Below are positions 1 to 29,744 of a stretch of 37,076 nt of DNA, in pieces. The DNA comes from Thiohalomonadaceae bacterium. GTDB taxonomy: Bacteria > Pseudomonadota > Gammaproteobacteria > Thiohalomonadales > Thiohalomonadaceae. The stretch spans positions 1 through 37,076 of the forward strand of contig JBFFJV010000001.1 in the NCBI GenBank assembly GCA_041555695.1. The letters are read 5' to 3'. The notes below the pieces were generated by a model. It was given only the letters and a program-made list of their open reading frames with translations, did no database searches and was not told the DNA's origin. A program made the position numbers and the translations under genes. Each line of letters begins with the position of its first letter. The first letter of the stretch is position 1.

Positions 1-1326
1 AGTAACGATGAAATCGGTCACATGTCCGGTGCGCTGAACAACATGCTTAAGGTAATCCACGGCGCGTTCGACGTTGTAAGCCAGGCGGCGCTCGCTGTAG
101 ATAGCAGTGCGAACGATGTGGCCGGACGCGCTTCTGCCAACCGTTCTCGTGCGCAGCAGCAGCAACAACGTGCGCAGGAGGCATCACAGGTAATCGGTGA
201 AATGGGTGCGACGGCCGGTAAGGTTCGGAACGCTACCGCAGCCCAGCAGGAGGCGGCTGTGGCATCGCAGGGACGAGTTGCTGAGCTGCTGCAGAAAATG
301 CAGCAGGTAGCCTCTACCGCCATGTCTTCCGATGCTGAGGTACAACAGACTCTTGAGCGCGTAGGCGAGATGGGTGAAACCGGTGCCAAGGTTGTGGCCA
401 GTGCGCAGACGCAGGAGCAGATGGTAGAGCGTGTTACCAAGTCTATCGAAGAGATGGTTAACTCGGTGGGTGAGATGCAGAACGCGGTAAACCAGGCCTC
501 TGAATATGGTCGCTCATCACTGGAAGCTGCCGAGGAGGGTGCCCGTTCGGTATCCGCAACGGTAGACGGTATGCGCTCCATCTCCGAGTCATCCGAGCAG
601 ATTTCTGAAATCATCGATGTAATCACCGAGATTGCCGAGCAAACCAACCTCCTTGCCCTTAACGCGGCGGTAGAGGCGGCCCGTGCCGGTGCGCACGGTA
701 AGGGTTTCGCGGTGGTTGCGGACGAGGTAGGTAAACTGGCGCAACGTTCATCCGAGGCGGCAAAAGAGATCACACAGTTGATCAAGGATTCAAGCTCCGG
801 CGTAGCCGAGGGTGTGCGACTTTCTGACATGTCACAACAGGCACTGCAGAAGATTGACGAAGGTGGTCGCGTAAACATGCAGGCCATCGAGGGTATCGCC
901 AAATCAGCGCAGAGTCTGAACGATGCCACCGGCCAGGTTCAGAACCTGATTGAGGAACTCAACGTACTGGCCCGTGAAATCGGGGGTATGGCGGGTGAGC
1001 AGGGTACACGTCGTGCTGCGGCACAGCGTGCGCTTGACATGGTGGTAGATTACTCCAAGTCGATCACCAATCTGGTTGCCGAGGCCAACGACAGCGTTCG
1101 GGAGATTAACAGCCAGATGGAAGGGGTTGTGGAACGCTCCAATGAGATGAACAAGATGACCGCTGAGCAGGCAAAACGTTCGCAGATGGTATCGTCCATC
1201 TCTGCTGAAACAGCCGAGGCTGCAGAGCAGACCGTGGAAGGTGCCGGTGTGGTGGTAACTGTAACCGGTGACTTGCAGAAGCAGTCGCAGAGCCTTACTG
1301 AACAGGTACAGCAGTTCAAGATCTAA
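1..1326 (+). CDS. Methyl-accepting chemotaxis protein, C-terminal part (5' end outside the window)
   Basis: Frame 1 is open from nt 1 ([15 protein letters not shown] looks like the end of a HAMP helix) to TAA at 1324-1326. It carries the invariant MCP hairpin-tip motif [38 protein letters not shown], flanked by long Ala/Gln/Glu-rich coiled-coil arms. Confidence 0.95.
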
Positions 1327-1418
1327 ACGGATTGCCAGGGTGCCATGTGGCCTGAGAATGACAGGCCCATGGTTTGGCAGATGTTTGCAGACTGTACCGA
1401 TATTCAGGGGATAGTGTT

Positions 1419-1961
1419 ATGGCGGAAAGAGTAGGATTTGACAAGATAGAAGAGGATGAAGATGAGGGCATGCTACAGCTTGTCGGCTTTGATATTGCCG
1501 ATGAGCAGTTTGGTGTCGATATCCTCATGGTGCAGGAGATCATCCGTTCGGCAAAGGTCACCTCAGTGCCCAACTCGCCGGAGTTTGTTGAGGGGGTGAT
1601 TAATTTGCGCGGTAATATCATTCCGGTGGTCGATCTGCGCAAACGTCTTTACCTCTACAATGAGGCATCAGAGCAGAAGCGTTCGTGGGTACTCATCCTT
1701 AATATCGGTGAGCGTGTTGTTGGCTTTATCGTCGATCAGGTTACGCACGTTATCAAAGTATCGGAAGATAGTGTGCAGCCACCACCGGAGATCGTGATCT
1801 CCGGCCTGGAGAGCCAGTACATTCAGGGTGTATGCGAGTTGGGTAACAGCCTGCTGGTGATCCTCAACTTCTCGCGTGTACTGTTTAGTGATGAGTACAA
1901 CATGTTGCAGGACCTTGAGAGCGAAGAGATCGTGCTTGATGAGGAGATGATGGTCGATTAA
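1419..1961 (+). CDS. cheW: CheW coupling protein
   Basis: CheW-domain sequence (LVGFDIADEQFGVDILMVQEIIR...VINLRGNIIPVVDLRKRL...GFIVDQV). I prefer the ATG at 1419, preceded by GGGGA, over the TTG at 1374 given in the ORF track. The C-terminal tail is acidic. Confidence 0.9.
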   Translation: MAERVGFDKIEEDEDEGMLQLVGFDIADEQFGVDILMVQEIIRSAKVTSVPNSPEFVEGVINLRGNIIPVVDLRKRLYLYNEASEQKRSWVLILNIGERVVGFIVDQVTHVIKVSEDSVQPPPEIVISGLESQYIQGVCELGNSLLVILNFSRVLFSDEYNMLQDLESEEIVLDEEMMVD

Positions 1962-1985
1962 CTCACCATCGGAGTGGATAGTGTA

Positions 1986-2333
1986 ATGGGTAAAAATGTT
2001 CTGATAGTCGAAGACTCTGCGATGATGCGAAAGATCATCACCAAGGAGTTGGTCAATGCCGGCCACACCATTATTGGTGAGGCCAGTGACGGTGCGGAAG
2101 CGGTACAGATGTACCAGAGTCTTAGACCTGAAATCGTCACCATGGACATTACGATGCGTGGCATGGACGGTTTTACTGCTGCCCAGGAGATCCTCGCCAT
2201 TGATCCGGATGCGAAGATCCTTATCCTCTCCAACCTCAATGAAGATAAGTACCGGGACAAGGCTGAAAAGCTGGGTGTCATTGGTCTGGTAAATAAGCAT
2301 AAATCGAGTGAGATTCTTGATCTCATCGGTTGA
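1986..2333 (+). CDS. cheY: Single-domain CheY-like response regulator
   Basis: Receiver-domain hallmarks: VLIVEDS, phospho-acceptor context IVTMDITMRGMDG, and a conserved Lys in LVNKH. The ATG at 1986 has GGAG upstream. The alternative start is GTG at 1974. Confidence 0.9.
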   Translation: MGKNVLIVEDSAMMRKIITKELVNAGHTIIGEASDGAEAVQMYQSLRPEIVTMDITMRGMDGFTAAQEILAIDPDAKILILSNLNEDKYRDKAEKLGVIGLVNKHKSSEILDLIG

Positions 2334-2425
2334 AAGTTCTCGTCCTGGCACTTCGTGCCTCAGCGCGCTGAGTGGCGTTCTGGGAGCCGTGGGCAATGGA
2401 ACCATTGAGCATATAGGGAATGGTT

Positions 2426-5400
2426 ATGAGTAATATCGATTTGTCACTTCTTCCCGATTTCATCGTGGAGGCGGAGGAGCATCTCGAAGAGATGGAGGCG
2501 CTGCTGCTAAGACTGGTGCAGCAACCCGATGATCTGGAAGTGCTTAACGATATCTTTCGTCCGATCCACACCATAAAAGGTGGCGCGCAATATATCGGTC
2601 TGGAAAAGATCTCTCAACTATCACATCGTCTTGAGGACTTGCTGGATCTGTTGCGAGAAGGCTCCATGGTCTCCAACAGTGAGATTGTGGAAACCCTGAT
2701 AACTGCTGCCGACAGAATCAAACTACTGGTCAGTGAGCTGGAAGCACACCAGAGTGAAGATTCTGATGTCGATGAACTGGTTTCCAGTCTTACCTACTGG
2801 ATTGATGGTGACAGTGCCAGCCCTGAGGTCGCGGTTTCTACTGAGGACTCCCGCGGCAGTGAGATGGTAGAGCAGAGCATTGCTTCACCCTATGCGGCAG
2901 AAGAAGACAAGGAACTCTATGCCATCTTCGAGGCGCATTTGCAGGAACAGTTTGGTGAGCTTTCGGTACTGCTAAATCAGCTGGCATCAGGCGGTGATGT
3001 CACAGCACTGTTGCAACAGTCACTCAACGTGCTGGAGCAGATGCGCTCCTCAGCAAACTATATGGATTACGTTGATTTGGTGCAGCGCTACCAAATCTGG
3101 AAGAGTGACCTGGAAGCCGCCTTGCATCGTAGCAACAATGGCGAGCAGCTACAGCTTGAGTCGCTGTCACGCAATATGCGGGAACTGACAGAGCTGTTTC
3201 CCATTCTTCAATCAGTAGAAGTTCCGCTCTCTAGCGGCTTGGCTGAGGCTGCCCCTGCTGCTGATGAGCAGGTGGATATAACTGATGCGGTTGCGCGTGC
3301 CTTCGCCGAGGCATCAGCGGGTGCTACAGAGGCTGATAACCCATCTAATGATGAGGCTGCAGGCAATATTGATCTTTCCCTGCTTCCCGATTTTATTGTC
3401 GAGACAGAAGAGCACCTTGATGAGATGGAGGCTCTGCTGCTGAAGTTGATGCTGCAGCCTGATGACCGCGATGTGTTAAATGACATCTTTCGTCCCATCC
3501 ACTCCATTAAGGGGAGTGCGCAGTACATCGGTTTAACCAAAATATCACGCCTTAGTCATGTGCTTGAGGACCTGCTCGACCTGCTACGCCAGGGTGATCT
3601 CGAGTCAAACTTTACTATCGTCGAAACATTGATTGCGGCACGTGATCGTATTTTGCGTATTAACGATGAGTTAAAACAGCACCAGCAGGAAGATTCAGAT
3701 GTTGCTGATCTGATCGAGGCACTGAACCGGCTGCTGCCGGCATCGACACCCGTGGCAGAAGATGCTGCTTCTTCTTCCGTAACGGCCGGGGCCCCAGCCA
3801 TCTCCTCCATTGAGTCGTCTAGTTCCGCCGTCGTCTCACCTTATCAGGAGGAGGATGATAAGGAGCTATTTGAAATCTTCCTGGGGCATTTGCAAGAGCA
3901 GTATGATGAGCTGGTCATACTGCTGCAGGATATTGCGGGTGGCGCTGACAAGGTGGCGGCGTTGACGGGTTGTTCGGAGGTGGTCGCTAAGATGTCCTCC
4001 TCGGCCAACTACATGGATTATGTCGATCTGGTGCAGCGCTACAAGATTTGGCAAAACGAGATCACCAAGGCACAAGATGATCTGCTGGCCGGGACTGAAA
4101 CCTCGATCGCCTTTATGCAGCATAATCTGGATGAACTGGCTGCACTGTTTCCGCAATTACGCTCGGCGGATGCCGCGGTCATCGGTAGCACAGAGTCCAG
4201 CATTAAAGTGGTCGTGAATGAGCCTGTGGTCGGTGGTCTGGAAGATACCCTGGCTAAGAAGGCCTCTGCTGAGCGCACCGCCGCGGCACAGAGTGCCTCT
4301 TCTGCCTTCGATGCGCAGCTATTTAATAGCCTGGCTGGTGCCCTTGACCGCTCTATGCCTCAGGCATCCAGTGATGAGTATGAAACGCTCAATCAGATCT
4401 TTGATGAGTTGGTATCGGGTGAGCCAGAGCAAAAAGCTGAATCTGTTGCAGCACCAGCGAAACCGCTGGCAAGGGCGAAGCCTGCTGCGACGGCTGAAGC
4501 ACAGAAGAAATCTGCAGAGAGCAAGATTAAGAAAAGCGTCCGTGTGGATGCTGAGAAAATCGACACCCTGATGAATCAGGTGGGTGAGCTGGTGGTCGAC
4601 CGTTCCTACTTCTTCCAGCTGATGTCAGAAATGCGCAATCTGCAGCGCCACCTCAAGGATACCCTGGGGCTGGAGCAGAAAGAGGTGAAGATGCTGCGCA
4701 CCTTTACCTATCGTCTCGGTGAGGCAATCGCCTCGTTAGGCCGCACCTCCAATGACCTGCAGGAAGGTGTGATGAAGATGCGCATGCTGCCCATCTCTCA
4801 GATCTTCAATCGTTACCCAAGACTGGTACATGACCTCACGCGTAACAGCGAGAAGAAGGTTAACCTGGTGGTCAAGGGTGAGGATACTGAACTGGATCGC
4901 ATGATTGTTGAAGAGCTGTCTGATCCGCTGATCCACATTATTCGCAACTCTGTTGATCATGGACTGGAAGTCGAGTCTGAACGGCGGGAGAAGGGCAAAA
5001 ATGATGAAGGAACCCTGGTGCTCGAAGCGTACCAGGAGAGTAACCACATTGTTATCGAAGTCACCGACGACGGTAAGGGTATCGACCCGAATAAGGTTCG
5101 CCAAAAGGCAATCGAGAAAGGTCTCTACAGTGCCGAAGAGCTGGATCGCTTTACCAGTGATGAGTTGATAGCGTTGATCATGACCGCCGGCTTCTCGACC
5201 GCGGACAAGATCACGGGTACCTCCGGGCGAGGTGTCGGTATGGATGTGGTGAAGAAGAACATCGAGAAGCTTAACGGCACACTGGAGATTGATTCCAGAG
5301 TGGGTGTCGGGACGCAAATGCGCCTGAAGATTCCGCTGACCCTTGCCATTATCCACGCGCTGATGGTTCGTGTGAGTGATGATCTCTTTACCATTCCGCT

Positions 5401-5854
5401 GGCTAATGTTGACGAGACGGTACGTATTTTCAAGGATGAGACCTTTACCGTTGAGGGCGTCGAGGTGATTCATCTACGTGGTGAGACATTGCCGATATTC
5501 CGCCTATCTACCCTGTTTGGGGCGACGGGTGTCCAGGAGGGGGAAAAGTCCTTCGTCGTGATCGTGAGTGTTGGCGGACAACGTACCGGTTTTGTCGTTG
5601 ATGAGCTGTTGGGTCAGGAAGAGGTGGTCATCAAGCCGCTGGCAGATTATGTGCAGGACAAGAGCGGGTTCTCTGGCGCCACCATCATCGGTGATGGGCG
5701 TATTTCACTCATCCTCGATGCCTATGAGATGGTGCGTATGACCGCTAACAAACAGGCGAAAAGGCAGAAGCAGCAAGCGGATATGCTCAAGTCGAAGATT
5801 CGAAGAAAGGGCATGCCATCCCGCACTGCGGTTGTTGAAGGTGCTGCCGAGTAG
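2426..5854 (+). CDS. cheA: CheA histidine kinase with two Hpt (P1) domains
   Basis: There are two Hpt H-boxes (FRPIHTIKGGAQYIG and FRPIHSIKGSAQYIG). After an Ala/Ser/Pro linker come a dimerisation region, an HATPase_c domain (HIIRNSVDHG, DDGKGID, GRGVGMDVV) and a C-terminal CheW-like P5 domain (GFVVDELLGQEEVVIKPL). The ATG at 2426 is better spaced from AGGGA than the ATG at 2420. Confidence 0.93.
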   Translation: MSNIDLSLLPDFIVEAEEHLEEMEALLLRLVQQPDDLEVLNDIFRPIHTIKGGAQYIGLEKISQLSHRLEDLLDLLREGSMVSNSEIVETLITAADRIKLLVSELEAHQSEDSDVDELVSSLTYWIDGDSASPEVAVSTEDSRGSEMVEQSIASPYAAEEDKELYAIFEAHLQEQFGELSVLLNQLASGGDVTALLQQSLNVLEQMRSSANYMDYVDLVQRYQIWKSDLEAALHRSNNGEQLQLESLSRNMRELTELFPILQSVEVPLSSGLAEAAPAADEQVDITDAVARAFAEASAGATEADNPSNDEAAGNIDLSLLPDFIVETEEHLDEMEALLLKLMLQPDDRDVLNDIFRPIHSIKGSAQYIGLTKISRLSHVLEDLLDLLRQGDLESNFTIVETLIAARDRILRINDELKQHQQEDSDVADLIEALNRLLPASTPVAEDAASSSVTAGAPAISSIESSSSAVVSPYQEEDDKELFEIFLGHLQEQYDELVILLQDIAGGADKVAALTGCSEVVAKMSSSANYMDYVDLVQRYKIWQNEITKAQDDLLAGTETSIAFMQHNLDELAALFPQLRSADAAVIGSTESSIKVVVNEPVVGGLEDTLAKKASAERTAAAQSASSAFDAQLFNSLAGALDRSMPQASSDEYETLNQIFDELVSGEPEQKAESVAAPAKPLARAKPAATAEAQKKSAESKIKKSVRVDAEKIDTLMNQVGELVVDRSYFFQLMSEMRNLQRHLKDTLGLEQKEVKMLRTFTYRLGEAIASLGRTSNDLQEGVMKMRMLPISQIFNRYPRLVHDLTRNSEKKVNLVVKGEDTELDRMIVEELSDPLIHIIRNSVDHGLEVESERREKGKNDEGTLVLEAYQESNHIVIEVTDDGKGIDPNKVRQKAIEKGLYSAEELDRFTSDELIALIMTAGFSTADKITGTSGRGVGMDVVKKNIEKLNGTLEIDSRVGVGTQMRLKIPLTLAIIHALMVRVSDDLFTIPLANVDETVRIFKDETFTVEGVEVIHLRGETLPIFRLSTLFGATGVQEGEKSFVVIVSVGGQRTGFVVDELLGQEEVVIKPLADYVQDKSGFSGATIIGDGRISLILDAYEMVRMTANKQAKRQKQQADMLKSKIRRKGMPSRTAVVEGAAE
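2432..4170 (+). repeat. In-frame tandem duplication inside cheA (two modules of about 0.8-0.93 kb, offset exactly 933 nt = 311 codons)
   Basis: NIDLSLLPDFIVE(A/T)EEHL starts at 2432 and again at 3365. Similarity continues through the Hpt domains, the SPY..E(E/D)DKEL(Y/F).IF helices, the SSANYMDYVDLVQRY(Q/K)IW block and the ...LFP.L(Q/R)S ends near 3215 and 4170. Confidence 0.9.
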
Positions 5855-5894: not shown

Positions 5895-6956
5895 ATGGCT
5901 AATAAAATAAAAGTACTCATTGTTGATGACGCCTCCTTCATGGTGAAGGCGTTACGCGACATTCTGGATTCTGATCACGATATCGAGGTGGTGGGAAGCG
6001 CGCGCAATGGGAAAGATGCAGTCGAGAAGATTAAGAAGCTGCGTCCGGATGTTATTACCCTTGATGTCGATATGCCGGTGATGGATGGTATTCAGGCCAT
6101 TCGTCACATCATGATTGAGTGTCCGGTTCCTATCGTTATGTTGAGCTCACTGTTTGCCCATGGTGATATCACCTTTGAGGCATTGCGTCTTGGCGTAGTC
6201 GATTTTTTGCCCAAACCATCAGGGGCTATTTCAACAGATATCCATACCCAGCGTGCCGAGCTGGTTGAACGCGTCAAGCTTGCGGCATCAATTAAGCTGC
6301 ACAATGTGCAACGGGTGAAGCTTAATAAAGTTGATGCCCGCGAAGATATTACCAGTCGCTACCAGTATCAGTCGCTTGATTATCTGATGGCGATAGGAAC
6401 CACTCTGGGTGGACCCGGTTCAATTATTCGCCTGCTCTCATCGTTACCGCAAGATGTGCCTGCAGCGATAGTGGCAACCCAGGATATTGAACCGAAGATC
6501 CTTCCCGAATTTGTTAATGAGTTCGACCAGTATTCACCGTGGAAGATTGAGGTTGGAACTCGGTCAACGATATTACAGCAGGGTGTTTGTTATGTCTGTT
6601 CTACCCGGGTACCGATGAAGATCGGTATCAATGAGCAGAATGAGTCGATTCTGTTGCCCTGTGAGTCAGATGAGTCACCACTGAATGCGCTGTTTTCCTC
6701 TGCGGCGGAGGTATTTGAAAACCATACGGTGGGTGTGATCATGACAGGGCATGGTGATGATGGTAAAGAAGGGTTTGCGACAATTCAGAAGCATGGTGGT
6801 TTGACCCTTGCTCAGGAAACCCAAACCTGTGTCTATCCAAACCTGACACAGTGTGCCATAGAAAGCGGGGTGGTGGATAAGATTGTCTCCATCACAGAAC
6901 TGTCCTCGCAATTGGTCGACGCGGTGATGCAGTCCGAGGGAACTGGCATGGCATAA
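5895..6956 (+). CDS. cheB: CheB-like response regulator with a divergent (probably triad-less) methylesterase domain
   Basis: The N-terminal receiver is intact (KVLIVDDASFM, ITLDVDMPVMDG, FLPKP). The C-terminal domain aligns with CheB_methylest (LMAIGTTLGGPGS, GVIMTGHGDDG), but positions that are Ser and His in E. coli CheB read Thr and Asp. I chose the ATG at 5895; the TTG at 5832 in the ORF track overlaps cheA. Confidence 0.85.
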   Translation: MANKIKVLIVDDASFMVKALRDILDSDHDIEVVGSARNGKDAVEKIKKLRPDVITLDVDMPVMDGIQAIRHIMIECPVPIVMLSSLFAHGDITFEALRLGVVDFLPKPSGAISTDIHTQRAELVERVKLAASIKLHNVQRVKLNKVDAREDITSRYQYQSLDYLMAIGTTLGGPGSIIRLLSSLPQDVPAAIVATQDIEPKILPEFVNEFDQYSPWKIEVGTRSTILQQGVCYVCSTRVPMKIGINEQNESILLPCESDESPLNALFSSAAEVFENHTVGVIMTGHGDDGKEGFATIQKHGGLTLAQETQTCVYPNLTQCAIESGVVDKIVSITELSSQLVDAVMQSEGTGMA

Positions 6957-6988: not shown

Positions 6989-7939
6989 ATGATTATCTCA
7001 TGCCCCAAGTGCGGGACGAAATATAACGTCGACAAAGAGCGCTTCAACAAGCCGAATCCAAAGGTTCGTTGTGTGAAGTGTAAGAGTGTTTTTGTTGTAC
7101 GTATTGTGAAGAAGAGTTCCGATTCGGCAGCCACTAATACGCCGGTAGTGGCTGCACCACGCAAGTCATTCGTGGATACCAGTCCCTGTGTCACGGTGAC
7201 GGTATGCAATCAGAAGGGTGGGGTGTCGAAGACGAGCACCTGTCTGAATCTTGGGGTATCTCTTGCCGCACAGGGAAAAAAGGTGTTGCTGGTCGACTTT
7301 GATGTGCAGGCTAATCTCACCAGCCTGTTGCACCACCATGGGGCCAGGTCCTTCTTCGATGTGATGGGGAGTAGTGAGGCGAAGATTGAGGACTATATTC
7401 TCAGTACCGACTATGGCGTATCGTTGTTGCCCTCAAACAGCAAGATGGCCCTGCTGGCAAAGAAACATATGCAGCAGGGGGATTTTGAATACCTGCTGGC
7501 AGAAAAGTTGATTGCGATTAAGCCGGAATTTGATTTTATTATTATCGATACCCCTCCCTCTGGTGACTTCTTTACCCTGAACTCACTGCTGGCCTCCGAT
7601 TTGGCGATCATTCCTACTCAATGCGAATACCTTTCGCTCAACGGTGTTGAGCATATTGTGCGCATGATTTCGGTGATCAATGATAAGCGCGGCCATGGGC
7701 TGAAGTACAAAGTGCTGGTGGCTATGTACAATAAGGAGATAACGGCGGCCAACGTGATCCTCGATAAGCTTAAGTCAAAATATACGGATAATTTACTCAG
7801 CACCACCATTACGATGGATGGGGCGGTACAGGAGTCACACATTACCCAGAAGCCTCTCTACCACTACAACAAACAGAGTAATGCGTCACAGGAATATGTA
7901 GCGCTGGCGAACGAATTGCTGGGGCTGAGTATTAAGTAA
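6989..7939 (+). CDS. MJ0042-type zinc-ribbon fused to a ParA/MinD-family ATPase
   Basis: The N-terminus MIISCPKCGTKYNVDKERFNKPNPKVRCVKCKSVF has a CxxC...CxxC pattern typical of the MJ0042 finger family. After a linker come a deviant Walker A (NQKGGVSKTS), Walker A' (LLVDFDVQANLT) and Walker B (FIIIDTPPS). It sits directly after cheB. Confidence 0.85.
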   Translation: MIISCPKCGTKYNVDKERFNKPNPKVRCVKCKSVFVVRIVKKSSDSAATNTPVVAAPRKSFVDTSPCVTVTVCNQKGGVSKTSTCLNLGVSLAAQGKKVLLVDFDVQANLTSLLHHHGARSFFDVMGSSEAKIEDYILSTDYGVSLLPSNSKMALLAKKHMQQGDFEYLLAEKLIAIKPEFDFIIIDTPPSGDFFTLNSLLASDLAIIPTQCEYLSLNGVEHIVRMISVINDKRGHGLKYKVLVAMYNKEITAANVILDKLKSKYTDNLLSTTITMDGAVQESHITQKPLYHYNKQSNASQEYVALANELLGLSIK

Positions 7940-7942
7940 TAT

Positions 7943-8710
7943 ATGAAGCATCTACTTACGAGATATTCTTATCCGCTGATCTCTTTTTCAGTGGTGCTTA
8001 CCCTGTGGGAGGTTGCCTCCAGGCTCAGTGGTTGGAGTGCGCAGGTGTTTCCTGGTCCGCTGATGGTGGCTGAAGGGGGGATTGAGCTACTGCTGAATGG
8101 CAAGTTACTGCGCGACTCTGTGGCTAGTCTGTTTCGTGTCACGATTGGTTTTGACCTGGCGGTTTTGATTGGGATTCCTCTGGGAATTGTCCTGGGCCGC
8201 ATGAGCCGGCTGAGCAAATTCGTCAATCCGCTGATTCAGTTCTTACGCCCGATTTCTCCGCTGGCCTGGATCCCGCTGGCAATGCTGTGGTTTGGTATCG
8301 GGGAGAAACCGGCGATATTTCTGATCTTCCTCTCCTGCTTTTTCCCGCTGGTGACATCGACAGTGATCGCTGTCTACTCGATAAAACCCATCTACTTTCA
8401 AGTGGCGTCTAACTTCGGTTTCTCCCGTCGTGAGGTATTGTTCAAGGTGATCTTCCCGGCCATTCTGCCTGAAGTCATTACCGCGCTTCGTATGACTATC
8501 GGGATCGCATGGCTGGTGGTGGTGGCAGCCGAGATGATTGCTGTGCAGTCCGGGCTGGGTTATTTGATCCTCGATTCACGAAATGCACTGCGTATGGACT
8601 ATGTGATGGTGGGCATGATTACCATTGGTATTATCGGCATTATGCTCGACTACCTGATGCGTCGCCTGTCTGAGATTCAAGAGGTTAAATGGCGCACTCT
8701 GGCGTCATAG
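7943..8710 (+). CDS. ABC transporter permease, NitT/TauT (nitrate/sulfonate/taurine) family
   Basis: The protein is 255 aa and multi-pass hydrophobic, with a BPD_transp_1-like EAA region (...AAEMIAVQSGLGYLI). It starts 3 nt after the ParA-like stop codon. Confidence 0.85.
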   Translation: MKHLLTRYSYPLISFSVVLTLWEVASRLSGWSAQVFPGPLMVAEGGIELLLNGKLLRDSVASLFRVTIGFDLAVLIGIPLGIVLGRMSRLSKFVNPLIQFLRPISPLAWIPLAMLWFGIGEKPAIFLIFLSCFFPLVTSTVIAVYSIKPIYFQVASNFGFSRREVLFKVIFPAILPEVITALRMTIGIAWLVVVAAEMIAVQSGLGYLILDSRNALRMDYVMVGMITIGIIGIMLDYLMRRLSEIQEVKWRTLAS

Positions 8711-8725
8711 GGACAGGTTTCGGTA

Positions 8726-9520
8726 ATGAGTAAAATTAAAATTCAAAACCTGTGCAAGCATTATATTGACCGTCGAACGCAGATGCGTAGTGACACGGAT
8801 ACCGCTGGTAAAGGCAAGTGCAGTAACGTTCTGGATAATATCGATCTGGAGATTGAAGAGGGAGAGATGGTCTGCATTCTGGGGCCTTCAGGTGCCGGCA
8901 AGTCGACATTGCTACGCATTGTTGCCGGTCACGATCAGGGAAGCTCAGGTCAGATTTTGATTAATGGTGCTGAGATTAACGGGCCCAGTCAGGATAATAT
9001 TTTTGTTTATCAGCAGAACGGCCTGCTGCCCTGGTATTCGGTGTGGGAGAATGTTGAGCTTGGTCTACGGCATATTGATGATGATGATGAGAGGAACAAC
9101 CGCATCCATGAATATATCGATATTGTGGAATTAACGGGCTTTGAGTACCACTATCCGCATCAGCTCTCCGGTGGTATGCAGCGTCGTGCCGAGCTGGCCC
9201 GTGCGCTTGCAGTCAACCCGGACATTCTTTTTATGGATGAACCCTTCACCGGACTCGATTACCTGACTCACCTCAAGATTCGCGAAGAGGTGATTAATAT
9301 GCACCCGTACTATCAGAAAACCACCTTGATGGTGACCCACTTTATTGATGACGCGCTGATTATGGCCGACCGTATCGTGGTGTTGGGGGAGCGACCTGCC
9401 AAGGTGATGATGGTGGAGAAACTCGATTATGCCCGGCCGCGCAATATTGAAAGAGAACCGGGCCTGCGGGAGTTACGTGACAAGATCTTCCTGATGCTGG
9501 GGGTCAGCTATGTTGCGTAA
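8726..9520 (+). CDS. ABC transporter ATP-binding protein
   Basis: Motifs present: Walker A GPSGAGKST, Q-loop YQQNGLLPW, signature LSGGMQRR, Walker B ILFMDEPFTGLD and H-loop MVTH. Confidence 0.92.
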   Translation: MSKIKIQNLCKHYIDRRTQMRSDTDTAGKGKCSNVLDNIDLEIEEGEMVCILGPSGAGKSTLLRIVAGHDQGSSGQILINGAEINGPSQDNIFVYQQNGLLPWYSVWENVELGLRHIDDDDERNNRIHEYIDIVELTGFEYHYPHQLSGGMQRRAELARALAVNPDILFMDEPFTGLDYLTHLKIREEVINMHPYYQKTTLMVTHFIDDALIMADRIVVLGERPAKVMMVEKLDYARPRNIEREPGLRELRDKIFLMLGVSYVA

Positions 9521-10553
9521 CAAATTCTGGTCACTAGCCTCTGCTAGTCTCTCCTCCAAGCTTTTTGTCATCCCAGTATTCTGGTTGATTGGCATCAGTG
9601 TTGCCCACTATTACCTGAACTTTGAGAGTAGTGATCGCCGGGTTTTTCGCATGGGTTATATGCCGGTGATCACCAATATGGCGGCGCCGCTTCTTGATTA
9701 CGTCTCAGAGGGTGAGGACGGTGTGCGATACAAGGCAATTAAGTACTCATCCTTTGCCGAGATGGCCGAATCGATACGCAACAACCATATCGATGCGGCC
9801 TTCATGATTGCACCACTCTCCATTGTGCTGCGCCAGCAGGGGACCGATATTAAGCTGGTTTATATCGGTAACCGTCACGAGAGCACGCTGGTGACGCGCA
9901 AGGACCTTAACATTACCGAGTTTCCGCAGCTGGCAGGTAAGACTGTTGCGGTGCCGATGCGTTTCTCCGGCCACAACCTGAGTGTGCTGCAGCTGGTGAA
10001 GAAGTATCAGCTGCAGGGTGATATCAATATTGTGGAGATGAATCCACCGGATATGGCCTCGGCCCTGGCTTCGGGCGAGCTGGATGCCTACTATGTGGGC
10101 GAACCCTTTGCCGCGAAGACCCTTAAGTCCGGTCATGCTTCACTGCTATCCTATGCAGAGGATGTATGGCCCAATTTCATCTGTAATCTGGTGATTGTGA
10201 ATAACTCCCTGATTGAATCTGATCCTGAGTTGATTCAGCAGTTCGTCAGTGCTGCAGCCCGCTCCGGACAATGGGCACAGAAGAACCCTGATGAAGCGGC
10301 AGAAATTGCCTCCTCCTACTGGAATCAGGATGTTGAACTGGTGAAATACGCTCTCAATACCCCGAAAAATCGTATCGTTTATGATCAGTTCGTACCACAG
10401 GCAGCTGAGATGCAGCAGATCGCAGACATGATGGTGGAGAATGCACTCATTGCTGATCACAGCATTGAGGGCCTGATTGATGACCGATTTGCCAGGAAGG
10501 CTGATCTTACCAGGATAGAAGGGCTGGGAAGTGTGCTGCAGAGCGGCTACTAG
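9510..10553 (+). CDS. ABC substrate-binding protein (NMT1/SsuA/NrtA-like) with an N-terminal membrane anchor
   Basis: The start overlaps the ATPase stop by 11 nt. The N-terminus is hydrophobic (KLFVIPVFWLIGISVAHYY) with no obvious lipobox. The body resembles NitT/TauT binding proteins (MGYMPVI..., AAFMIAPLSIV, YVGEPFAA). Confidence 0.75.
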   Translation: MLRNKFWSLASASLSSKLFVIPVFWLIGISVAHYYLNFESSDRRVFRMGYMPVITNMAAPLLDYVSEGEDGVRYKAIKYSSFAEMAESIRNNHIDAAFMIAPLSIVLRQQGTDIKLVYIGNRHESTLVTRKDLNITEFPQLAGKTVAVPMRFSGHNLSVLQLVKKYQLQGDINIVEMNPPDMASALASGELDAYYVGEPFAAKTLKSGHASLLSYAEDVWPNFICNLVIVNNSLIESDPELIQQFVSAAARSGQWAQKNPDEAAEIASSYWNQDVELVKYALNTPKNRIVYDQFVPQAAEMQQIADMMVENALIADHSIEGLIDDRFARKADLTRIEGLGSVLQSGY

Positions 10554-10858: not shown

Positions 10859-12157
10859 ATGCAGGTTTCAGTTGAGACAACCAACGGTCTTGAGCGTCGT
10901 ATGACCGTAGAGCTCCCCGTCGAGCGTATTGATGACGAGGTGCAGAACCGCCTCAAGCAGATGAGCCGTAGCGCCAAGGTGAAGGGCTTTCGCCCCGGTA
11001 AGGTGCCGCATAAGGTGCTGGCTCAGCAGTATGGAGCGCAGATCCGTGATGAGGTGGTTGGCGAGTTGATCCAGTCCAGTTATTTTGAAGCAGTAAGCAA
11101 GGAGAGCCTGCAGCCGGCGGGTATGCCGAGTATCGAGCCTAAGATAAACGAGGCCGGTAAAAACCTGGAATACACCGCTACCTTTGAGGTGATGCCTGAG
11201 GTGACTCTGGCCGATGTATCCGGTGCCAAGCTGGAGAAGCGTGTTGCCGAGGTGAGTGACGCAGACCTCGAAAAGATGATGGAAACCCTGCTCAAGCAGC
11301 GTGCGACCTGGGAAGCCGTCGATCGTGCCGCAGCCGAGGGCGACCGCTTGAATATCGACTTCAAGGGCACCATTGATGGAGAAGAGTTCTCCGGAAACTC
11401 TGGCGAGAATGTCCCGGTTACCATCGGTGCCAAGCGCATGATTGAGGGCTTCGAAGAGGGAATGGTTGGCGCCAAGGCAGGTGATGAGCTCACCCTGGAC
11501 CTCAGCTTCCCCGAGGAGTACCCCCACAAGGAGGTTGCTGGCAAGCCGGTACAGTTCGCGGTTAAGGTGAACAGCGTGGAAGAGTCCAAGCTGCCTGTGC
11601 TGGACGAAGAGTTTGCCAAGAGCTTTGGGATTGGAGATGGCAGTCTTGAGTCCCTGCATCAGGAGGTGCGCCAGAATATGGAGCGCGAAATGAAGCAGGC
11701 TCTGACCGAGGGCAATAAGCAGGCGGTGATGGATAAGCTGGTTGAGCTTAATCCAATCGAGGTGCCCCAGGCTCTGGTAGAGAGTGAAGCCGAGAACCTC
11801 AAACAGCAGATGCAGCAGCAGATGCACATACCGGATGGCAAGTCTGGGGTCGAGCTCGATAACGGGATGTTCCGTGAGCAGGCGCAGCGCCGTGTCTCTC
11901 TGGGCCTGATTCTCTCTGAGCTGATTAAGAGCAAAGGGCTGAAGGCAGATGAAGATAAGGTTCGTGCCAAGGTCGATGAGCTGGCAGCTACCTACGAGGA
12001 GCCTCAGCAGGTGATCGACTGGTACTACGGCGATAAGAGCCGCCTGTCTCAGGTGGAGAGCCTGGTACTGGAAGATGCCGTGGTTGACTGGGTATTCGAA
12101 CAGGCAGATGTGACGGAGAAAAGTGGCAGTTTCGACGAAGTAATGGGTCGAGGCTAA
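10859..12157 (+). CDS. tig: Trigger factor
   Basis: [20 protein letters not shown]...GFRPGKVP is the canonical trigger-factor N-terminus. There is an internal FKBP-type PPIase segment. GAGGTG lies upstream of the start, and the gene sits in the tig-clpP-clpX-lon synteny. Confidence 0.97.
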
Positions 12158-12186
12158 CTCAGACCAAGTTAAAGGAAACTGATGCA

Positions 12187-12828
12187 ATGATCGACAACAG
12201 CAATATGAACGGTGCACTGGATACGAAAAATCTGGGTTTGATCCCCATGGTGGTCGAGCAGACCTCCCGTGGTGAGCGCTCCTACGACATCTACTCCCGA
12301 CTGCTCAAGGAGCGGGTAATCTTTGCCGTCGGGCCGGTAGAAGACCACATGGCCAATTTGATCGTGGCGCAGCTGTTGTTCCTGGAGTCGGAAAATCCGG
12401 ATAAGGACATTCACCTCTACATCAACTCTCCAGGTGGCTCGGTTAGCGCGGGCCTGGCGATTTACGACACCATGCAGTTCATCAAGCCGAAGGTCAACAC
12501 CATGTGCATCGGCATGGCGGCGAGCATGGGGGCCGTGTTGCTGGCCGGTGGAGCAGAGGGCAAGCGTTTTGCTCTACCGCACAGCCGGGTGATGATTCAC
12601 CAGCCGCTGGGTGGTTATCAGGGCCAGGCAACGGATATTGAAATTCATGCCCGTGAGATTCTGAAGATTCGCGAACAGCTCAACGGTATTCTCGCCAGCC
12701 ACAGCGGTCAGCCGATCGAGCGTATCCAGCAGGATACCGAGCGTGACAACTTCATGAGCGGTAGCGAGGCGGTGGAATATGGCCTTATAGATCAAGTGCT
12801 TGGTAACCGTGCGGGTGAGGGGGAGTAG
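12187..12828 (+). CDS. clpP: ATP-dependent Clp protease proteolytic subunit
   Basis: [35 protein letters not shown] (catalytic Ser context) and MIHQPLGG (His context). AAGGAA lies 9 nt upstream. Confidence 0.97.
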
Positions 12829-12943
12829 TTCCTTCTCGCTCATCAGTCTGGTGGCTGATTCAATCCATAAAGAACAGGGGGTTGAAATATGACGCCAGAC
12901 TATGCATGTTTGACATATATCGATAGTAATACAGGAATAGGCG

Positions 12944-14224
12944 ATGCCTGAAAATACGACTGGCAAAGGTGATGACAACGGCAAACTGCTCTACTGCTCC
13001 TTCTGTGGTAAGAGCCAGCATGAGGTGCGTAAGCTGATCGCCGGGCCTTCTGTCTTTATCTGCGATGAGTGTGTCGAGCTGTGTAACGACATTATTCGTG
13101 AAGAGATTCAGGAGGAGTCGAGTGGTAGTGTCGGTAGTCAGCTGCCCACGCCTCATGAGATTAACGAAAGTCTTGATGAATACGTGATTGGCCAGAAACG
13201 TGCCAAGAAGGTGCTGTCGGTGGCGGTTTACAACCACTACAAGCGCCTTAATGCCGGGAAGAACAAGGACGAGGTAGAGCTGGCCAAGAGTAATATCCTG
13301 CTGATAGGTCCTACCGGTTCGGGTAAGACCTTGCTGGCCGAGACTTTGGCGCGCCTGCTAAATGTGCCCTTCACTATTGCTGATGCCACCACCCTTACTG
13401 AGGCGGGTTACGTTGGTGAAGATGTGGAGAACATCATCCAGAAGTTGTTGCAGAAGTGCGATTACGACGTGGAGAAGGCGCAGACAGGTATTGTCTATAT
13501 TGACGAAATCGACAAAATCTCGCGCAAGTCTGACAACCCTTCGATTACCCGTGATGTATCGGGTGAGGGTGTACAGCAGGCACTGCTCAAGCTGATCGAG
13601 GGCACTGTTGCCTCGGTACCGCCGCAGGGTGGTCGCAAGCACCCGCAGCAGGAGTTTTTGCAGGTCGATACCTCGAATATCCTCTTTATCTGTGGTGGTG
13701 CCTTCGCCGGACTGGATCGGGTGATTCGGAATCGTTCTGAGAAGGGTGGTATTGGCTTCTCCGCTGAGGTGAAGAGCAAGGATGAGAAGAAGAGCTACAC
13801 TGAAATGCTACTCAGCGTCGAGCCGGAGGATTTGGTGCAGTATGGCCTGATCCCTGAGTTCGTGGGACGTCTGCCGGTACACGCGACGCTGGAAGAGCTG
13901 GATGAGGATGCTCTCGTCTCAATACTTACCGAGCCGAAGAACGCGCTGATTAAACAGTATGGCAGACTCTTCGATATGGAGGATGTGGAGCTGGAGTTCC
14001 GCGAGGATGCGCTGCTTTCCATTGCCACCAGGGCGATGGAGCGCAAGACCGGTGCCCGTGGCCTGCGCTCTATCCTGGAGACAACCCTGCTCGATACGAT
14101 GTATGATTTACCCTCTATGGAAGGAGTGAGTAAGGTGGTGATCGATGCAGGTGTCATTGAAGGCGAGTCTGAGCCGCTGCTGATATACAAAAGCGCCGAG
14201 CAGAGCGTCGCTGCAGCTGACTAA
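12944..14224 (+). CDS. clpX: ATP-dependent Clp protease ATP-binding subunit ClpX
   Basis: N-terminal zinc-binding CSFCGK...CDECV, Walker A GPTGSGKT, Walker [10 protein letters not shown] and the pore-loop GYVGED. Confidence 0.98.
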
Positions 14225-14232
14225 CCCCTGTC

Positions 14233-14270
14233 GGGTGCGGTTATCGACACCGCACCCGCAACTATTTTTC
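14233..14270 (+). terminator. Hairpin plus T-tract downstream of clpX (possible partial terminator)
   Basis: A perfect 9-bp stem, GGGTGCGGT (14233-14241) pairing with ACCGCACCC (14249-14257), has a 7-nt loop. The T-run (TATTTTT) follows only after a 6-nt spacer, so this is not a textbook intrinsic terminator. Confidence 0.4.
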
Positions 14271-14303
14271 CCCTTGATTCCCGCGCGAATAGTCCGCATA
14301 ATT
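14268..14303 (+). promoter_or_regulatory. Putative sigma-32 heat-shock promoter for lon
   Basis: TTCCCCTTGATT - 14 nt - CCGCATAAT resembles the sigma-32 consensus (CCCTTGAA - 13-15 nt - CCCCATNT). It lies about 80 nt upstream of the lon ATG, where E. coli lon has its sigma-32 promoter. Confidence 0.45.
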
Positions 14304-14382
14304 AATAGCATAGTAAATAGCTTGGTTATTCTGTGCGTGCGGTATTCCGCCCGGCTAGAATGGCCCAAAGAGGTGCAATCCG

Positions 14383-16806
14383 ATGGATGCTAAGGACAAG
14401 ATTTCTGAAGTAAGCGAACAACTGCGGACGATTCCGGTGCTGCCGTTGCGTGATGTGGTGGTCTATCCACACATGGTTATCCCACTGTTCGTCGGTCGTG
14501 ATAAATCAATTAATGCACTGGAAGCTGCGATGGAAGAGGACAAGGAGATCCTGCTGGTGGCACAAAGAAGTGCCTCAGAAGATGATCCTGGTGAAGAAGA
14601 TATATACCGTATTGGTACCCTCTCGACTATCTTGCAGCTACTGAAACTTCCCGACGGTACCGTAAAAGTACTGGTGGAGGGGGGACAGCGCGCCAAGATA
14701 GTCAACTTTATCGAACAGGAAGAGTTCTTCTCGGCGCAAATATCGGTGCTGGAGGCCGAGCCCATTGAGGAGCGTGAGGCCGAGGTACTATCGCGTTCAG
14801 TGCTCAATCAGTTTGATCAGTACGTCAAGCTGAATAAGAAAGTGCCGCCTGAGGTTTTGACCTCGCTCTCCGGTATTGAAGATGCGAATCGCTTACTCGA
14901 TACCATTGCCGCGCATATGGCGCTGAAGATCGATGAGAAGCAGGAGATTCTGGCAATTACCGATCTGCGGGAGCGCTTTGAGCACCTGCTGGCGATGATG
15001 GAGTCGGAGCTGGATCTATTGCAGGTGGAGAAGCGCATCCGTGGTCGCGTTAAAAAGCAGATGGAGAAGAGCCAGCGCGAGTACTACCTCAATGAGCAGA
15101 TGAAGGCGATCCAGAAGGAGCTGGGTGACCTTGACGAGGCTCCTAATGAAATGGAGGAGCTGGAGCAGAAGATCGAAAAGGCCGGCATGTCCAAAGAGGC
15201 GAAGGACAAGGCCACTGCAGAGCTGAACAAGTTAAAGATGATGTCACCCATGTCCGCTGAAGCGACTGTGGTGCGCAATTATATCGACTGGATTGTGCAG
15301 GTGCCGTGGAAGAAGAAATCCAAGGTGAGACACGATCTGGCCTTAGCTGAAAAGGTGCTGGAAGAGGACCACTACGGTCTGGAGAAGGTGAAGGAACGGA
15401 TCCTCGAATACCTCGCAGTACAGAAGCGGGTGAAAAAACTGAAGGGCCCGATCCTCTGCCTGGTCGGACCGCCCGGTGTTGGTAAGACCTCGCTGGGTAA
15501 GTCGATTGCGCGGGCAACCAATCGCAAGTTTGTGCGTATGGCCCTGGGTGGAGTACGTGACGAGGCGGAGATCCGTGGTCACCGTCGTACCTACATCGGT
15601 TCAATGCCAGGCAAGATCGTGCAGAATCTTGCCAAGGTTGAGACCCGTAATCCACTGTTCCTGCTTGATGAGATCGACAAAATGGCTTCCGACTTCCGTG
15701 GCGATCCCGCCTCGGCGATGCTGGAGGTACTTGACCCGGAGCAGAATCACACCTTTAACGATCACTACCTGGAGGTCGATTATGACCTTTCCGATGTGAT
15801 GTTCATCGCCACCTCTAATTCAATGAACATCCCCGGCCCGCTGCTGGACCGGATGGAGGTGATCCGCATTGCCGGCTATACCGAGGATGAAAAGCTCAAC
15901 ATCGCACGCCGCTACCTGGTCTCCAAGGAGATGAAGGCTAACGGCCTGAAAGACGATGAGATCGTTATCAACGATGAGGCTCTGCTCGATATTGTGCGCT
16001 ACTACACCCGTGAGGCGGGGGTGCGTGGCCTGCAGCGCGAGGTGGCCAAGATCTGCCGCAAGGTGGTGAAGGAGCTGGTATCCGATGAGTCGCGCAAGCA
16101 GATTAGCGTCGGCAGTGATAATCTTGATGAATTCCTGGGTGTGCGTCGTTTCCGTTTCGGACTGGCCGAGGAGTCGGATCAGGTCGGTCAGGTAACGGGC
16201 CTGGCCTGGACCGAAGTGGGCGGCGAACTACTGAGTATCGAAACGGTGGTAGTGCCGGGTAAAGGTAAGCACACCGTTACCGGACAGCTGGGTGATGTGA
16301 TGAAGGAGTCGATCCAGGCTGCGATGAGTGTGGTGCGTAGCCGCGCCGCTGGCCTGGGAATTCGTCCTGATTTCTACGAGAACCAGGATATCCATGTGCA
16401 TGTGCCTGAAGGGGCAATCCCCAAAGACGGCCCCAGTGCCGGTATCGGTATGTGTACAGCGCTGGTTTCAGTGCTAACCGGTATTCCGGTGCGTGCTGAT
16501 GTGGCGATGACCGGAGAGATTACCCTGCGCGGTGAGGTGCTGCCCATTGGTGGTCTGAAGGAGAAACTGCTGGCGGCCTCTCGTGGTGGCATCAAGACGG
16601 TAATCATTCCTGAAGAGAATCGTCGTAATCTTGAGGACGTGCCAGATAACATAACAGATAATCTGGATATTCATCCTGTAAAGTGGATCGACGAGGTGAT
16701 CGACCTCGCCCTGGTGAGCAAACCCGAGCCTCTTTCTGAAGAAGAGGTAATGGAAATTGTCAAGGCGAAAAAGGAAAAGAAACCGAATAACCTGCAAACC
16801 CATTAG
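14383..16806 (+). CDS. lon: Lon protease
   Basis: LON N-domain ([23 protein letters not shown]), AAA+ Walker [10 protein letters not shown], Walker [10 protein letters not shown] and the proteolytic Ser context PKDGPSAGI. Confidence 0.98.
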
Positions 16807-16812
16807 GGTGAT

Positions 16813-16857
16813 AAAGGCGATAGATGGCGCTATAGTTTTTCCCACTGTCGCCTTTTT
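16813..16857 (+). terminator. Probable intrinsic terminator after lon
   Basis: AAAGGCGA (16813-16820) pairs with TCGCCTTT (16848-16855) and the inner stem extends imperfectly. The 3' arm runs into TTTTT. The loop is large, hence the moderate confidence. Confidence 0.45.
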
Positions 16858-16943
16858 ACATGAATAAACTAAGCTAAGTTGTTAATAGCTCGATAAGTAT
16901 CGCTTAAAGCCGCATAAAACCGCGATTTTAAGCAGTACACTGC

Positions 16944-16973
16944 TTGACAGTAGTAAGAGCCAGTTGGTATAAA
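16944..16973 (+). promoter_or_regulatory. Putative sigma-70 promoter for hupB
   Basis: A perfect -35 TTGACA (16944-16949), an 18-nt spacer, then TATAAA (16968-16973), about 130 nt upstream of hupB. Confidence 0.5.
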
Positions 16974-17102
16974 TTCGCGAAGATTTTTATTGCCGTTCAA
17001 CATAAATTAAATGGCGGCGTTTTTTGTAAGTGTTATACGTCTTATCTAAATAACTAGAGCAAGACCCAATAATCCTACCAAACGGAACGAGGGGAGAAAC
17101 CT

Positions 17103-17375
17103 GTGAACAAATCTGAAATGATTGATGCAATTGCTGAAGGTGCTGATATTTCTAAAGCTGCTGCTGGTCGTGCACTGGATGCGATGGTTGAAGCTGTAAC
17201 TGAGACTCTGAAAAAGGGTGAAACCGTAAACCTGATCGGTTTTGGTACCTTCGAAGTACGTGATCGCAAGGCTCGTACCGGCCGTAACCCGCAGACTGGT
17301 GCCACCATTCAGATCGCTGCTGCTAAATCTCCTGCCTTCAAGGCTGGTAAAGCGCTTAAGGATGCAGTAAACTAG
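17103..17375 (+). CDS. hupB: DNA-binding protein HU-beta
   Basis: [27 protein letters not shown]...[21 protein letters not shown]...[12 protein letters not shown] is a 90-aa HU-family protein. It has a GTG start with GAGGGGAG upstream and the conserved position after lon. Confidence 0.96.
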
Positions 17376-17392
17376 CGCGCCTTTGAGACATC

Positions 17393-17468
17393 GGGTGCTT
17401 AGCTCAGCTGGGAGAGCATCGCCCTTACAAGGCGAGGGTCGGGGGTTCGATCCCCTCAGCACCCACCA
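17393..17468 (+). tRNA. tRNA-Val (anticodon TAC)
   Basis: A 76-nt cloverleaf: acceptor GGGTGCT/AGCACCC, D-arm AGCTCAGCTGGGAGAGC, anticodon loop CTTACAA, T-arm GGGGGTTCGATCCCCT and an encoded CCA. Confidence 0.95.
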
Positions 17469-17487
17469 AACAAGAAAAGTAAAATTC

Positions 17488-17564
17488 GGAGCGGTAGTTC
17501 AGTTGGTTAGAATACCGGCCTGTCACGCCGGGGGTCGCGGGTTCGAGTCCCGTCCGCTCCGCCA
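17488..17564 (+). tRNA. tRNA-Asp (anticodon GTC)
   Basis: A 77-nt cloverleaf: acceptor GGAGCGG/CCGCTCC, D-arm AGTTCAGTTGGTTAGAAT, anticodon loop CTGTCAC, T-arm GCGGGTTCGAGTCCCGT and an encoded CCA. Confidence 0.95.
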
Positions 17565-17574
17565 ATATTGAACC

Positions 17575-17602
17575 AAGGGCGCATTTTTATGCGCCCTTTT
17601 TT
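17575..17602 (+). terminator. Intrinsic terminator after the tRNA pair
   Basis: A 9-bp stem, AAGGGCGCA (17575-17583) pairing with TGCGCCCTT (17590-17598), has a 6-nt loop and is followed by a T-run. Confidence 0.8.
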
Positions 17603-17649
17603 CTTTCTAGAATCCATAAACACAAAATGGCAGCAGGAACATAGCCGAT

Positions 17650-29737: not shown

Positions 29738-29744
29738 CTACACT

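Follow-up and report, generated by a model that had tools for sequence, protein, structure and literature searches.

A CheB-like response regulator with a substituted catalytic triad in a chemosensory gene module of Gammaproteobacteria and Desulfobacterota

In chemosensory pathways, the reversible methylation of receptors by the CheR/CheB pair counts as the near-universal mechanism of adaptation. Methylation-independent adaptation proteins are known from Bacillus subtilis, namely, CheV, which consists of CheW plus a receiver, and CheC/CheD, of which CheD is a deamidase with a Cys-His-Thr active site. ParA-like ATPases that position the chemosensory array are encoded within che operons, with ParC of Vibrio and PpfA of Rhodobacter as examples. 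Here we describe a CheB-like response regulator of 353 amino acids, referred to as B2, which is encoded on a 37,076-nucleotide stretch of DNA from a Thiohalomonadaceae bacterium (GenBank assembly GCA_041555695.1, contig JBFFJV010000001.1, positions 1 to 37,076); this whole stretch is referred to as the window. B2 has the domains of a CheB protein but carries Thr-Asp-Asp at the positions of the Ser-His-Asp esterase triad. It is no isolated oddity; the module to which it belongs is syntenic and widespread and contains two or three CheB paralogues that lack the triad.

B2 resembles the CheB proteins (protein-glutamate methylesterases/glutamine deamidases) of Salmonella/E. coli (structures 1A2O and 1CHD) and Pectobacterium (6YMZ) in its two domains, in its fold (template modeling [TM] score of 0.87), and in its sequence (~28% identity); it has an intact receiver pocket, an Asp at the Asp286 position, and both the TGxGxDG and the AQ motif, and its gene lies beside cheA. 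It differs from them in having Thr-Asp/Glu-Asp for Ser-His-Asp and YPNL for the GMP loop, in belonging to a gene cluster without a detected CheR, in having a cognate methyl-accepting chemotaxis protein (MCP) without consensus methylation sites or a C-terminal pentapeptide, and in scoring below the NCBIfam cutoff for CheB. Any likeness to CheV and CheC/CheD of B. subtilis would be functional only, a feedback without reversible methylation; there is no homology to these proteins, and B2 would instead be a re-purposed CheB fold. To our knowledge, neither CheB-like proteins nor a linked ABC transporter has been described for the cyanobacterial Tax/Pix systems, which are compared with the module below. 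The literature searched by full text (including PMC7184735, PMC2577667, and bioRxiv 10.1101/2021.06.11.447907) yielded no account of the module or of CheB paralogues without the triad, although an earlier mention in a genomic survey is possible.

Triad positions, conservation, and fold of B2

The start of B2 was placed at the ATG at position 5895, which agrees with the N termini of 353-amino-acid homologues (100% coverage); a longer, TTG-initiated reading would begin at 5832. Pfam searches recovered Response_reg at amino acids 7 to 109 (E = 1e-22) and CheB_methylest at amino acids 166 to 340 (E = 7e-36, profile positions 2 to 174 of 174, above the Pfam domain cutoff), and this order of a receiver followed by a full-length CheB_methylest domain is the CheB architecture. 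Against the NCBIfam CheB model PRK00742, B2 scored 280.5 bits, below the cutoff of 293, and against PRK12555, it scored 247 bits, below the cutoff of 342. Many database copies of B2 homologues are named just "response regulator," while others are named CheB; the former label may have arisen because B2 falls under the NCBIfam CheB cutoff. A preliminary description of this DNA, made from the sequence alone, had stated that the acidic pocket and the phospho-acceptor of the receiver are intact, and this was borne out by alignment to CheB, which showed a complete pocket of D11, D12, D57, S85, and K107 that is invariant in 120 homologues.

The preliminary description had further proposed that AIGTTLGG and IVATQDIEP replace the motifs that hold Ser164 and His190 in CheB, that TGHGDDG keeps the catalytic Asp, and that the conserved GMP segment is altered. 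The columns of the triad were located by three independent alignments: phmmer alignments to the solved CheB structures 1A2O (Salmonella CheB), 6YMZ, and 7ESG; a B2-derived hidden Markov model (HMM) aligned with 156 domains from the nearest representatives of 50% clusters, 124 of these domains having the canonical Ser-His-Asp; and a profile made from those 124 canonical domains together with E. coli CheB. All three place Thr170 of B2 at Ser164, Asp197 at His190, and the retained Asp289 at Asp286, and all three read TCVYPNL where CheB has (S/T)CVV(F/Y)GMP. In none of them was a shifted Ser or His available at the triad columns of B2. The substitutions seen by eye are therefore not the product of a shifted alignment, and an ordinary CheB misaligned by eye was rejected as an explanation, since the structures, the query HMM, and the canonical profile all gave the same columns. 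A hydroxyl group is still present at the nucleophile position in the form of Thr, and what has strictly been lost is the general-base His, which is absent from the triad position in every B2 member, and the GMP loop.

In the lineage of the window, a His residue (His286) is found at the position of CheB Met283. His286 and Asp197 cooccur only in the clade to which the window belongs (20 sequences with 72 to 100% identity), and they could be a compensatory pair, or His286 could be a relocated His. As a relocated catalytic residue, His286 was set aside and kept as a minor possibility, as it occurs in one clade only and its covariation with Asp197 is inseparable from phylogeny.

Conservation was assessed with the best 120 homologues, which have 56 to 90% identity to B2, giving 121 sequences with B2 itself. 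G168, T169, T170 (119 Thr and 2 Ser), L171, G172, and G173 are at least nearly invariant; Q196 is conserved and is followed at position 197 by Glu in 98 sequences and by Asp in 23; G285, G287, D/E289, and G290 are conserved; and the stretch from C312 to L317 is unchanged in 120 to 121 of the 121 sequences. In an alignment of 36 sequences with identities down to 40%, conservation within the C-terminal domain centers on the former active-site motifs, and the substituted motifs and the receiver pocket are also kept in 89 B2-type open reading frames (ORFs) from the related loci described below. The nucleophile position is occupied by Thr or Ser in approximately 90% of the members and by Asn or Gly in some lineages, in which the Glu and the Asp are kept. 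The ratio of nonsynonymous to synonymous substitutions (dN/dS) of the C-terminal domain relative to the two closest relatives is ~0.06, an approximate value since dS is saturated.

An AlphaFold2 model of B2 built from the 36-sequence alignment had a mean confidence (pLDDT) of 87.4 and a predicted TM score (pTM) of 0.86. In Foldseek comparisons, this predicted model matched full-length CheB (1A2O and 6YMZ) with a TMq score of 0.87 and the catalytic domains 1CHD and 3SFT with TMt scores of 0.85 to 0.88 and a root mean square deviation of ~2 Å.

The canonical catalytic His is thus gone from a domain that is under purifying selection, the pattern by which a pseudoenzyme is recognized, although Thr/Ser together with Glu/Asp could still be catalytic. 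A decaying gene, whether recently inactivated or a pseudogene, was rejected, given the invariant motifs, the low dN/dS, and an ORF that is uninterrupted in all relatives. To judge from the alignments, the site is re-purposed and not decaying, as the alternative motif is strongly conserved under purifying selection. Of the earlier term "degenerate triad," the part that stands is that the canonical residues are replaced; "degenerate" is misleading for a replacement motif that is conserved to this extent among orthologues.

The C-terminal domain found 20,638 matches among representative sequences at an E value of ≤1e-3 in an exhaustive HMMER search, and just 5 at ≤1e-30. A T/S/G-E-D triad together with a C(V/A)(Y/F)PNL signature was present in ~15 of the best 150 representatives. 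The small number of close matches, the frequency of the signature, and the 124 canonical domains among the 156 aligned above indicate that B2-type proteins form a discrete clade beside ordinary CheB proteins. In a scan with one genome per species, matches were found in 480 genomes. The best 80 of these include a Thiohalomonadaceae metagenome-assembled genome (89% identity), which is probably a near relative of the source of the window; the gammaproteobacterial side includes Chromatiales, Competibacteraceae/Contendobacter, Methylococcales, "Candidatus Venteria," and Ectothiorhodospiraceae, and the Desulfobacterota side includes Desulfobacterales, Desulfobulbaceae, Desulfatitalea, and the cable bacteria "Candidatus Electrothrix." The triad substitutions are shared from Gammaproteobacteria to Desulfobacterota.

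A syntenic module with several CheB-like paralogues

Synteny was sampled in 88 related loci with 10 kb on either side, of which 43 had enough upstream sequence and 70 had enough downstream sequence for the counts given here. The gene order (response regulator)-B1-MCP-CheW-CheY-CheA-B2-(ParA)-permease-ATPase-binding protein is kept across the 88 loci in Gammaproteobacteria and Desulfobacterota. B1 is a second CheB-like paralogue, found upstream of the MCP gene in 39 of 43 loci (for example, at 2039 to 3079 in locus L001 and at 1116 to 2174 in locus L004); its own conserved, noncatalytic motifs read GAAEGGY, (L/M)(Y/H), SGxGxDG, and CL(Y/H)K, which gives A-Y/H-D at the triad positions. B2-type proteins of these loci have T/S-E/D-D, with the first position rarely being N or G. 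In Desulfobacterota, a third paralogue is present that is more degenerate and shows G-S-G or G-T-G at these positions. Only 1 of the 174 CheB-like ORFs in the related loci has the canonical S-H-D, and this one lies in a separate, adjacent cluster. The phospho-acceptor pocket is kept in all CheB-like types of the module.

The preliminary description had named two features to look for in the surroundings of B2, namely, a cognate cheR gene and methylation-site pairs in the associated receptor, and neither was seen. In phmmer searches with E. coli CheR and CheZ (E < 1e-4), no match to either was found within 10 kb in the 88 loci, and CheR was also not seen in the Pfam-annotated contexts of related loci. 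A published-style methylation consensus, [ASTG]2-x2-[EQ]2-x2-[ASTG]2, which recovered all four sites of the control receptor Tar and two sites of Tap, had no match in the C-terminal 441 amino acids of the MCP that the window contains and none in most MCPs of the clusters.

The MCPs of related loci have 680 to 1,080 amino acids and a variable sensor (dCache, PilJ, or 4HB). In an alignment with Tar, the positions of Tar sites 1 to 3 are not conserved E/Q pairs in the cluster MCPs, and the position of site 4 reads I-x-x-M-A-G-E-Q-G-x-R-R-x-A-A, which is nearly invariant in 59 MCPs (M in 57, A in 58, G in 51, E in 46 or Q in 8, Q in 58, G in 58, R in 59, and R in 59). The C-terminal arm has 30 heptads, compared with 18 in the Tar control, which gives a signaling domain of ~60 heptads. 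A C-terminal pentapeptide is not present on the MCPs, which end in a normal helix terminus, ...QFK(I/V/F/L); this ending was rejected as a tethering peptide, as it equals the normal end of the signaling helix (...AFRL in Tar). MCPs of Competibacteraceae (loci L001, L008, L022, L025, L027, L028, L030, and L032) extend past the helix end with ...(N/Q/H)W(Q/H)A(G/S), a Trp-containing peptide that recalls the NWETF tether without matching it; the ParA-like gene is missing from these genomes.

From the MCP to the ABC transporter genes, intergenic gaps in the window are at most 86 nucleotides (3 to 41 nucleotides from cheA to the permease gene), or the genes overlap; the ParA-like gene and the permease gene are 3 nucleotides apart, and the genes for the ATPase and the binding protein overlap by 11 nucleotides. 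A scan of the window found no terminator-like site between the module genes, the scan being uninformative in that it gave fewer promoter and terminator sites than shuffled sequence. The ATP-binding cassette (ABC) transporter genes belong to the same operon as the che genes; in 66 of 70 loci, from two phyla, they follow the module directly and are read from the same strand. The NMT1/SsuA-like binding protein carries an N-terminal hydrophobic segment, and a domain search found no extra regulatory domain on the ABC ATPase. In locus L006, the MCP has a PilJ-type sensor and an ANTAR response regulator is encoded downstream, which hints at nitrate.

The ParA-like gene is present in 52 of 70 loci and missing from the Competibacteraceae versions of the module. 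As in ParC and PpfA, an ATPase of the ParA/MinD family with a deviant Walker A motif is encoded inside a chemosensory operon, whereas the MJ0042 zinc ribbon is a difference, as is the absence from Competibacteraceae; the comparison is at the level of the protein family. By analogy, placement of the receptor array may be the task of the ParA-like ATPase.

The module begins with a response regulator gene (at 1197 to 2030 in locus L001, 253 to 1041 in L004, 1534 to 2256 in L006, and in others), which would lie upstream of the window start. With this regulator, a plain CheY, MCP, CheW, and CheA, and no CheR found, the related loci resemble the cyanobacterial Tax/Pix type IV pilus systems, which have PatA-type (PATAN-REC) regulators (bioRxiv 10.1101/2021.06.11.447907), but the likeness of the ~120-amino-acid N-terminal domain of the regulator to DUF4388/PATAN is weak; of 14 members, 9 gave a match, and all of these matches were below the cutoff (best E = 8.7e-4). 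Head regulators of Methylococcales have a different N terminus, which is Cys rich and TPR-like. In cyanobacteria, chemosensory regulators of the PATAN-REC type bind the motor of the type IV pilus (bioRxiv 10.1101/2021.06.11.447907); a pilus connection of the module via the PATAN-like regulator is a lead and not a result.

The CheY slot of relatives is filled by a Response_reg gene of 115 to 127 amino acids. The cheA gene of the window is internally duplicated in tandem (period, 951 nucleotides or 317 amino acids; copies at 2885 to 3100 and 3836 to 4051), with 72 to 82% DNA identity in the detected segments, which accounts for two Hpt modules. CheA proteins of relatives have 807 amino acids (one Hpt match listed), ~1,140 to 1,156 amino acids, or 1,293 amino acids, and one of 1,137 amino acids has two Hpt matches listed; the copy number of the Hpt module probably varies between lineages. 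The coordinates of the features are collected in Table 1.

Table 1. Positions of B2, its motifs, and the neighboring module genes in the window
Feature	Position	Strand	Remarks
MCP, C-terminal 441 amino acids	1..1326	+	Cut by the window start; signaling domain of ~60 heptads; ends ...QFKI
MCP motif M-A-G-E-Q-G-T-R-R	988..1014	+	Nearly invariant; falls at Tar methylation site 4; might serve for docking or modification
CheW	1374..1961	+	Pfam CheW, E = 4e-37
Single-domain CheY-like response regulator	1974..2333	+	Probable start at internal ATG (...MGKNVLIVEDS), ~1986
CheA	2420..5854	+	Duplicated Hpt module (His50, His361), dimerization, HATPase, and CheW-like domains
CheB-like response regulator B2, 353 amino acids	5895..6956	+	Receiver plus methylesterase-fold domain
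Asp57, predicted phospho-acceptor of the B2 receiver	6063..6065	+	Aligned to CheB Asp56; invariant in 121 sequences; codon checked
AIGTTLGG motif	6390..6413	+	Thr170 (6402-6404) at the CheB Ser164 nucleophile position; G-T-T-L-G-G (nearly) invariant in the family; alignments
ATQDIEP motif	6474..6494	+	Asp197 (6483-6485) at the CheB His190 position; Glu in most relatives; alignments
TGHGDDG motif	6744..6764	+	Asp289 (6759-6761) equals CheB Asp286, retained; alignments
His286	6750-6752	+	At the CheB Met283 position; lineage specific; alignment
TCVYPNL motif	6825..6845	+	Family signature in place of (S/T)CVV(F/Y)GMP; C-V-Y-P-N-L in 120-121/121 sequences
ParA/MinD-like ATPase	6989..7939	+	Zinc ribbon of the MJ0042 type at the N terminus; KGGVSKT (7214-7234) as a deviant Walker A
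ABC transporter, nitrate/sulfonate/taurine type	7943..10553	+	Permease 7943-8710, ATPase 8726-9520, NMT1/SsuA-like binding protein 9510-10553

Outside the module, positions 10859 to 19551 hold a typical gammaproteobacterial housekeeping block with tig, clpP, clpX, lon, and a PpiD/SurA-like chaperone gene, inside which lie tRNA-Val(TAC) at 17393 to 17468 and tRNA-Asp(GTC) at 17488 to 17564. Two ORFs, at 28883 to 29737 (284 amino acids) and 30267 to 31298 (343 amino acids), have no Pfam match at an E value of ≤1e-5; the former overlaps, in another frame, an ORF with a Mut7-C RNase domain (29520 to 30251), and gene calls are uncertain there.

Possible roles of B2

The intact switch and CheB fold, the loss of the His, the constrained acidic site, the lack of a CheR match within 10 kb, and the lack of consensus methylation sites fit best with a protein that is directed at the receptor and does not demethylate it. 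In light of this, we tentatively favor the reading that B2 is a CheB paralogue without esterase function that, gated by phosphorylation, gives feedback on receptors independently of methylation. It is conceivable that CheA phosphorylates Asp57 and that, as in CheB, phosphorylation releases the C-terminal domain, whose remodeled, acidic former active site would then bind the adaptation region of the receptor and hydrolyze nothing. The best candidate site would be the E-Q-G-x-R-R segment that aligns with Tar methylation site 4, where the acidic pocket could pair with the invariant Arg-Arg beside the E-Q pair, and binding there would alter kinase output. Acting together, B1 and B2 would provide a methylation-independent feedback, with B2 also draining phosphate from CheA as a side effect. 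Several points weigh against this reading: receptor binding by B2 is purely inferred; the domain packing in the AlphaFold model may have been copied from 1A2O in training; CheR could be encoded elsewhere in the genomes, as the search covered 10 kb on either side only; and a receptor-feedback role leaves the strict linkage to the ABC transporter unexplained. Furthermore, with Thr or Ser and the Asp kept in most members, a hydrolase with Glu or Asp as the general base is possible.

Such a changed chemistry, with the domain still acting as a hydrolase through Thr/Ser170, Glu/Asp197, and Asp289, is in our view unlikely, but several observations speak for it. The nucleophile position is T or S in most members and the His position is acidic in all B2 proteins, no part of the domain is more conserved than the region of the former active site, and the Gln of the receptor E-Q pair is invariant at the Tar site 4 position. 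The enzyme might, for example, be a glutamine deamidase acting on this pair, for which CheR is not needed. The Ser-Glu-Asp triad of sedolisins and the Thr-Tyr-Glu set of L-asparaginases offer analogies, and B2 has an invariant Tyr314. In the lineage of the window, the chemistry might alternatively use the relocated His286, which accompanies Asp197 in that clade, although this residue is limited to the one clade and its covariation is confounded with phylogeny. On the other hand, the GMP loop beside the active site is replaced, we know of no precedent for such chemistry in the CheB fold, and binding is favored over catalysis by those lineages that have Asn or Gly as the nucleophile residue but keep the Glu and the Asp. 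That only the receiver matters and that B2 is a pure phosphate sink with its C-terminal domain as structural ballast is less plausible still; the receiver pocket is invariant, and four to five receivers per module compete for one CheA, but a ballast domain would be expected to show neither a low dN/dS nor invariant motifs centered on the old active site.

It is also rather doubtful that phosphorylated B2 has left the receptor and binds or regulates another partner, namely, the ABC transporter or the ParA-like ATPase, with the module controlling transport or array positioning. The constant association with the ABC genes, the frequent presence of the ParA-like gene, and the operon-like spacing with no terminator-like site between the genes would be in line with this. 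However, the ABC ATPase carries no added regulatory domain, the PATAN-like regulator and CheY already serve as possible outputs, and the retained receptor-directed fold and the invariant receptor motif favor the receptor as the target. Finally, that B2 is an ordinary, misaligned CheB or a recently inactivated gene or pseudogene is hardly credible; nothing beyond the overall similarity to CheB argues for this, and the agreement of three alignments, substitutions conserved from Gammaproteobacteria to Desulfobacterota, an intact ORF under purifying selection, and a score below the NCBIfam cutoff argue against it.

Taken together, the alignments, the conserved substitutions, and the lack of both a nearby cheR and consensus pairs in the MCP support what had been proposed at the outset, namely, that B2 is probably a pseudoenzyme or a protein of changed chemistry that does not demethylate; among binding, a phosphate sink, and altered chemistry, the sequence data cannot decide. 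A more far-reaching proposal, which we consider improbable as a whole, is that the module represents a previously undescribed, methylation-free form of adaptation, in which two or three phosphorylation-gated CheB pseudo-esterases (B1 with A-Y/H-D, B2 with T-E/D-D, and the third type) bind competitively at the single, invariant E-Q-G-x-R-R site of an unusually long receptor of ~60 heptads, replace the CheR/CheB cycle, and are coupled functionally to a dedicated ABC transporter.

Implications for chemosensory adaptation

In summary, a large clade, represented in 480 species-level genomes and two phyla, has kept the CheB fold and the phosphorylation switch and has given up the esterase triad, with the old active site being strongly constrained. 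Should the favored receptor-binding role of B2 prove true, this would be a clear case of a bacterial signaling pseudoenzyme and a new route of adaptation or feedback; should the domain be catalytic, it would represent a new triad in the CheB fold. Inferences on adaptation that are drawn from genomes would, for this module, be wrong in methanotrophs, sulfur oxidizers, Competibacteraceae, and cable bacteria.

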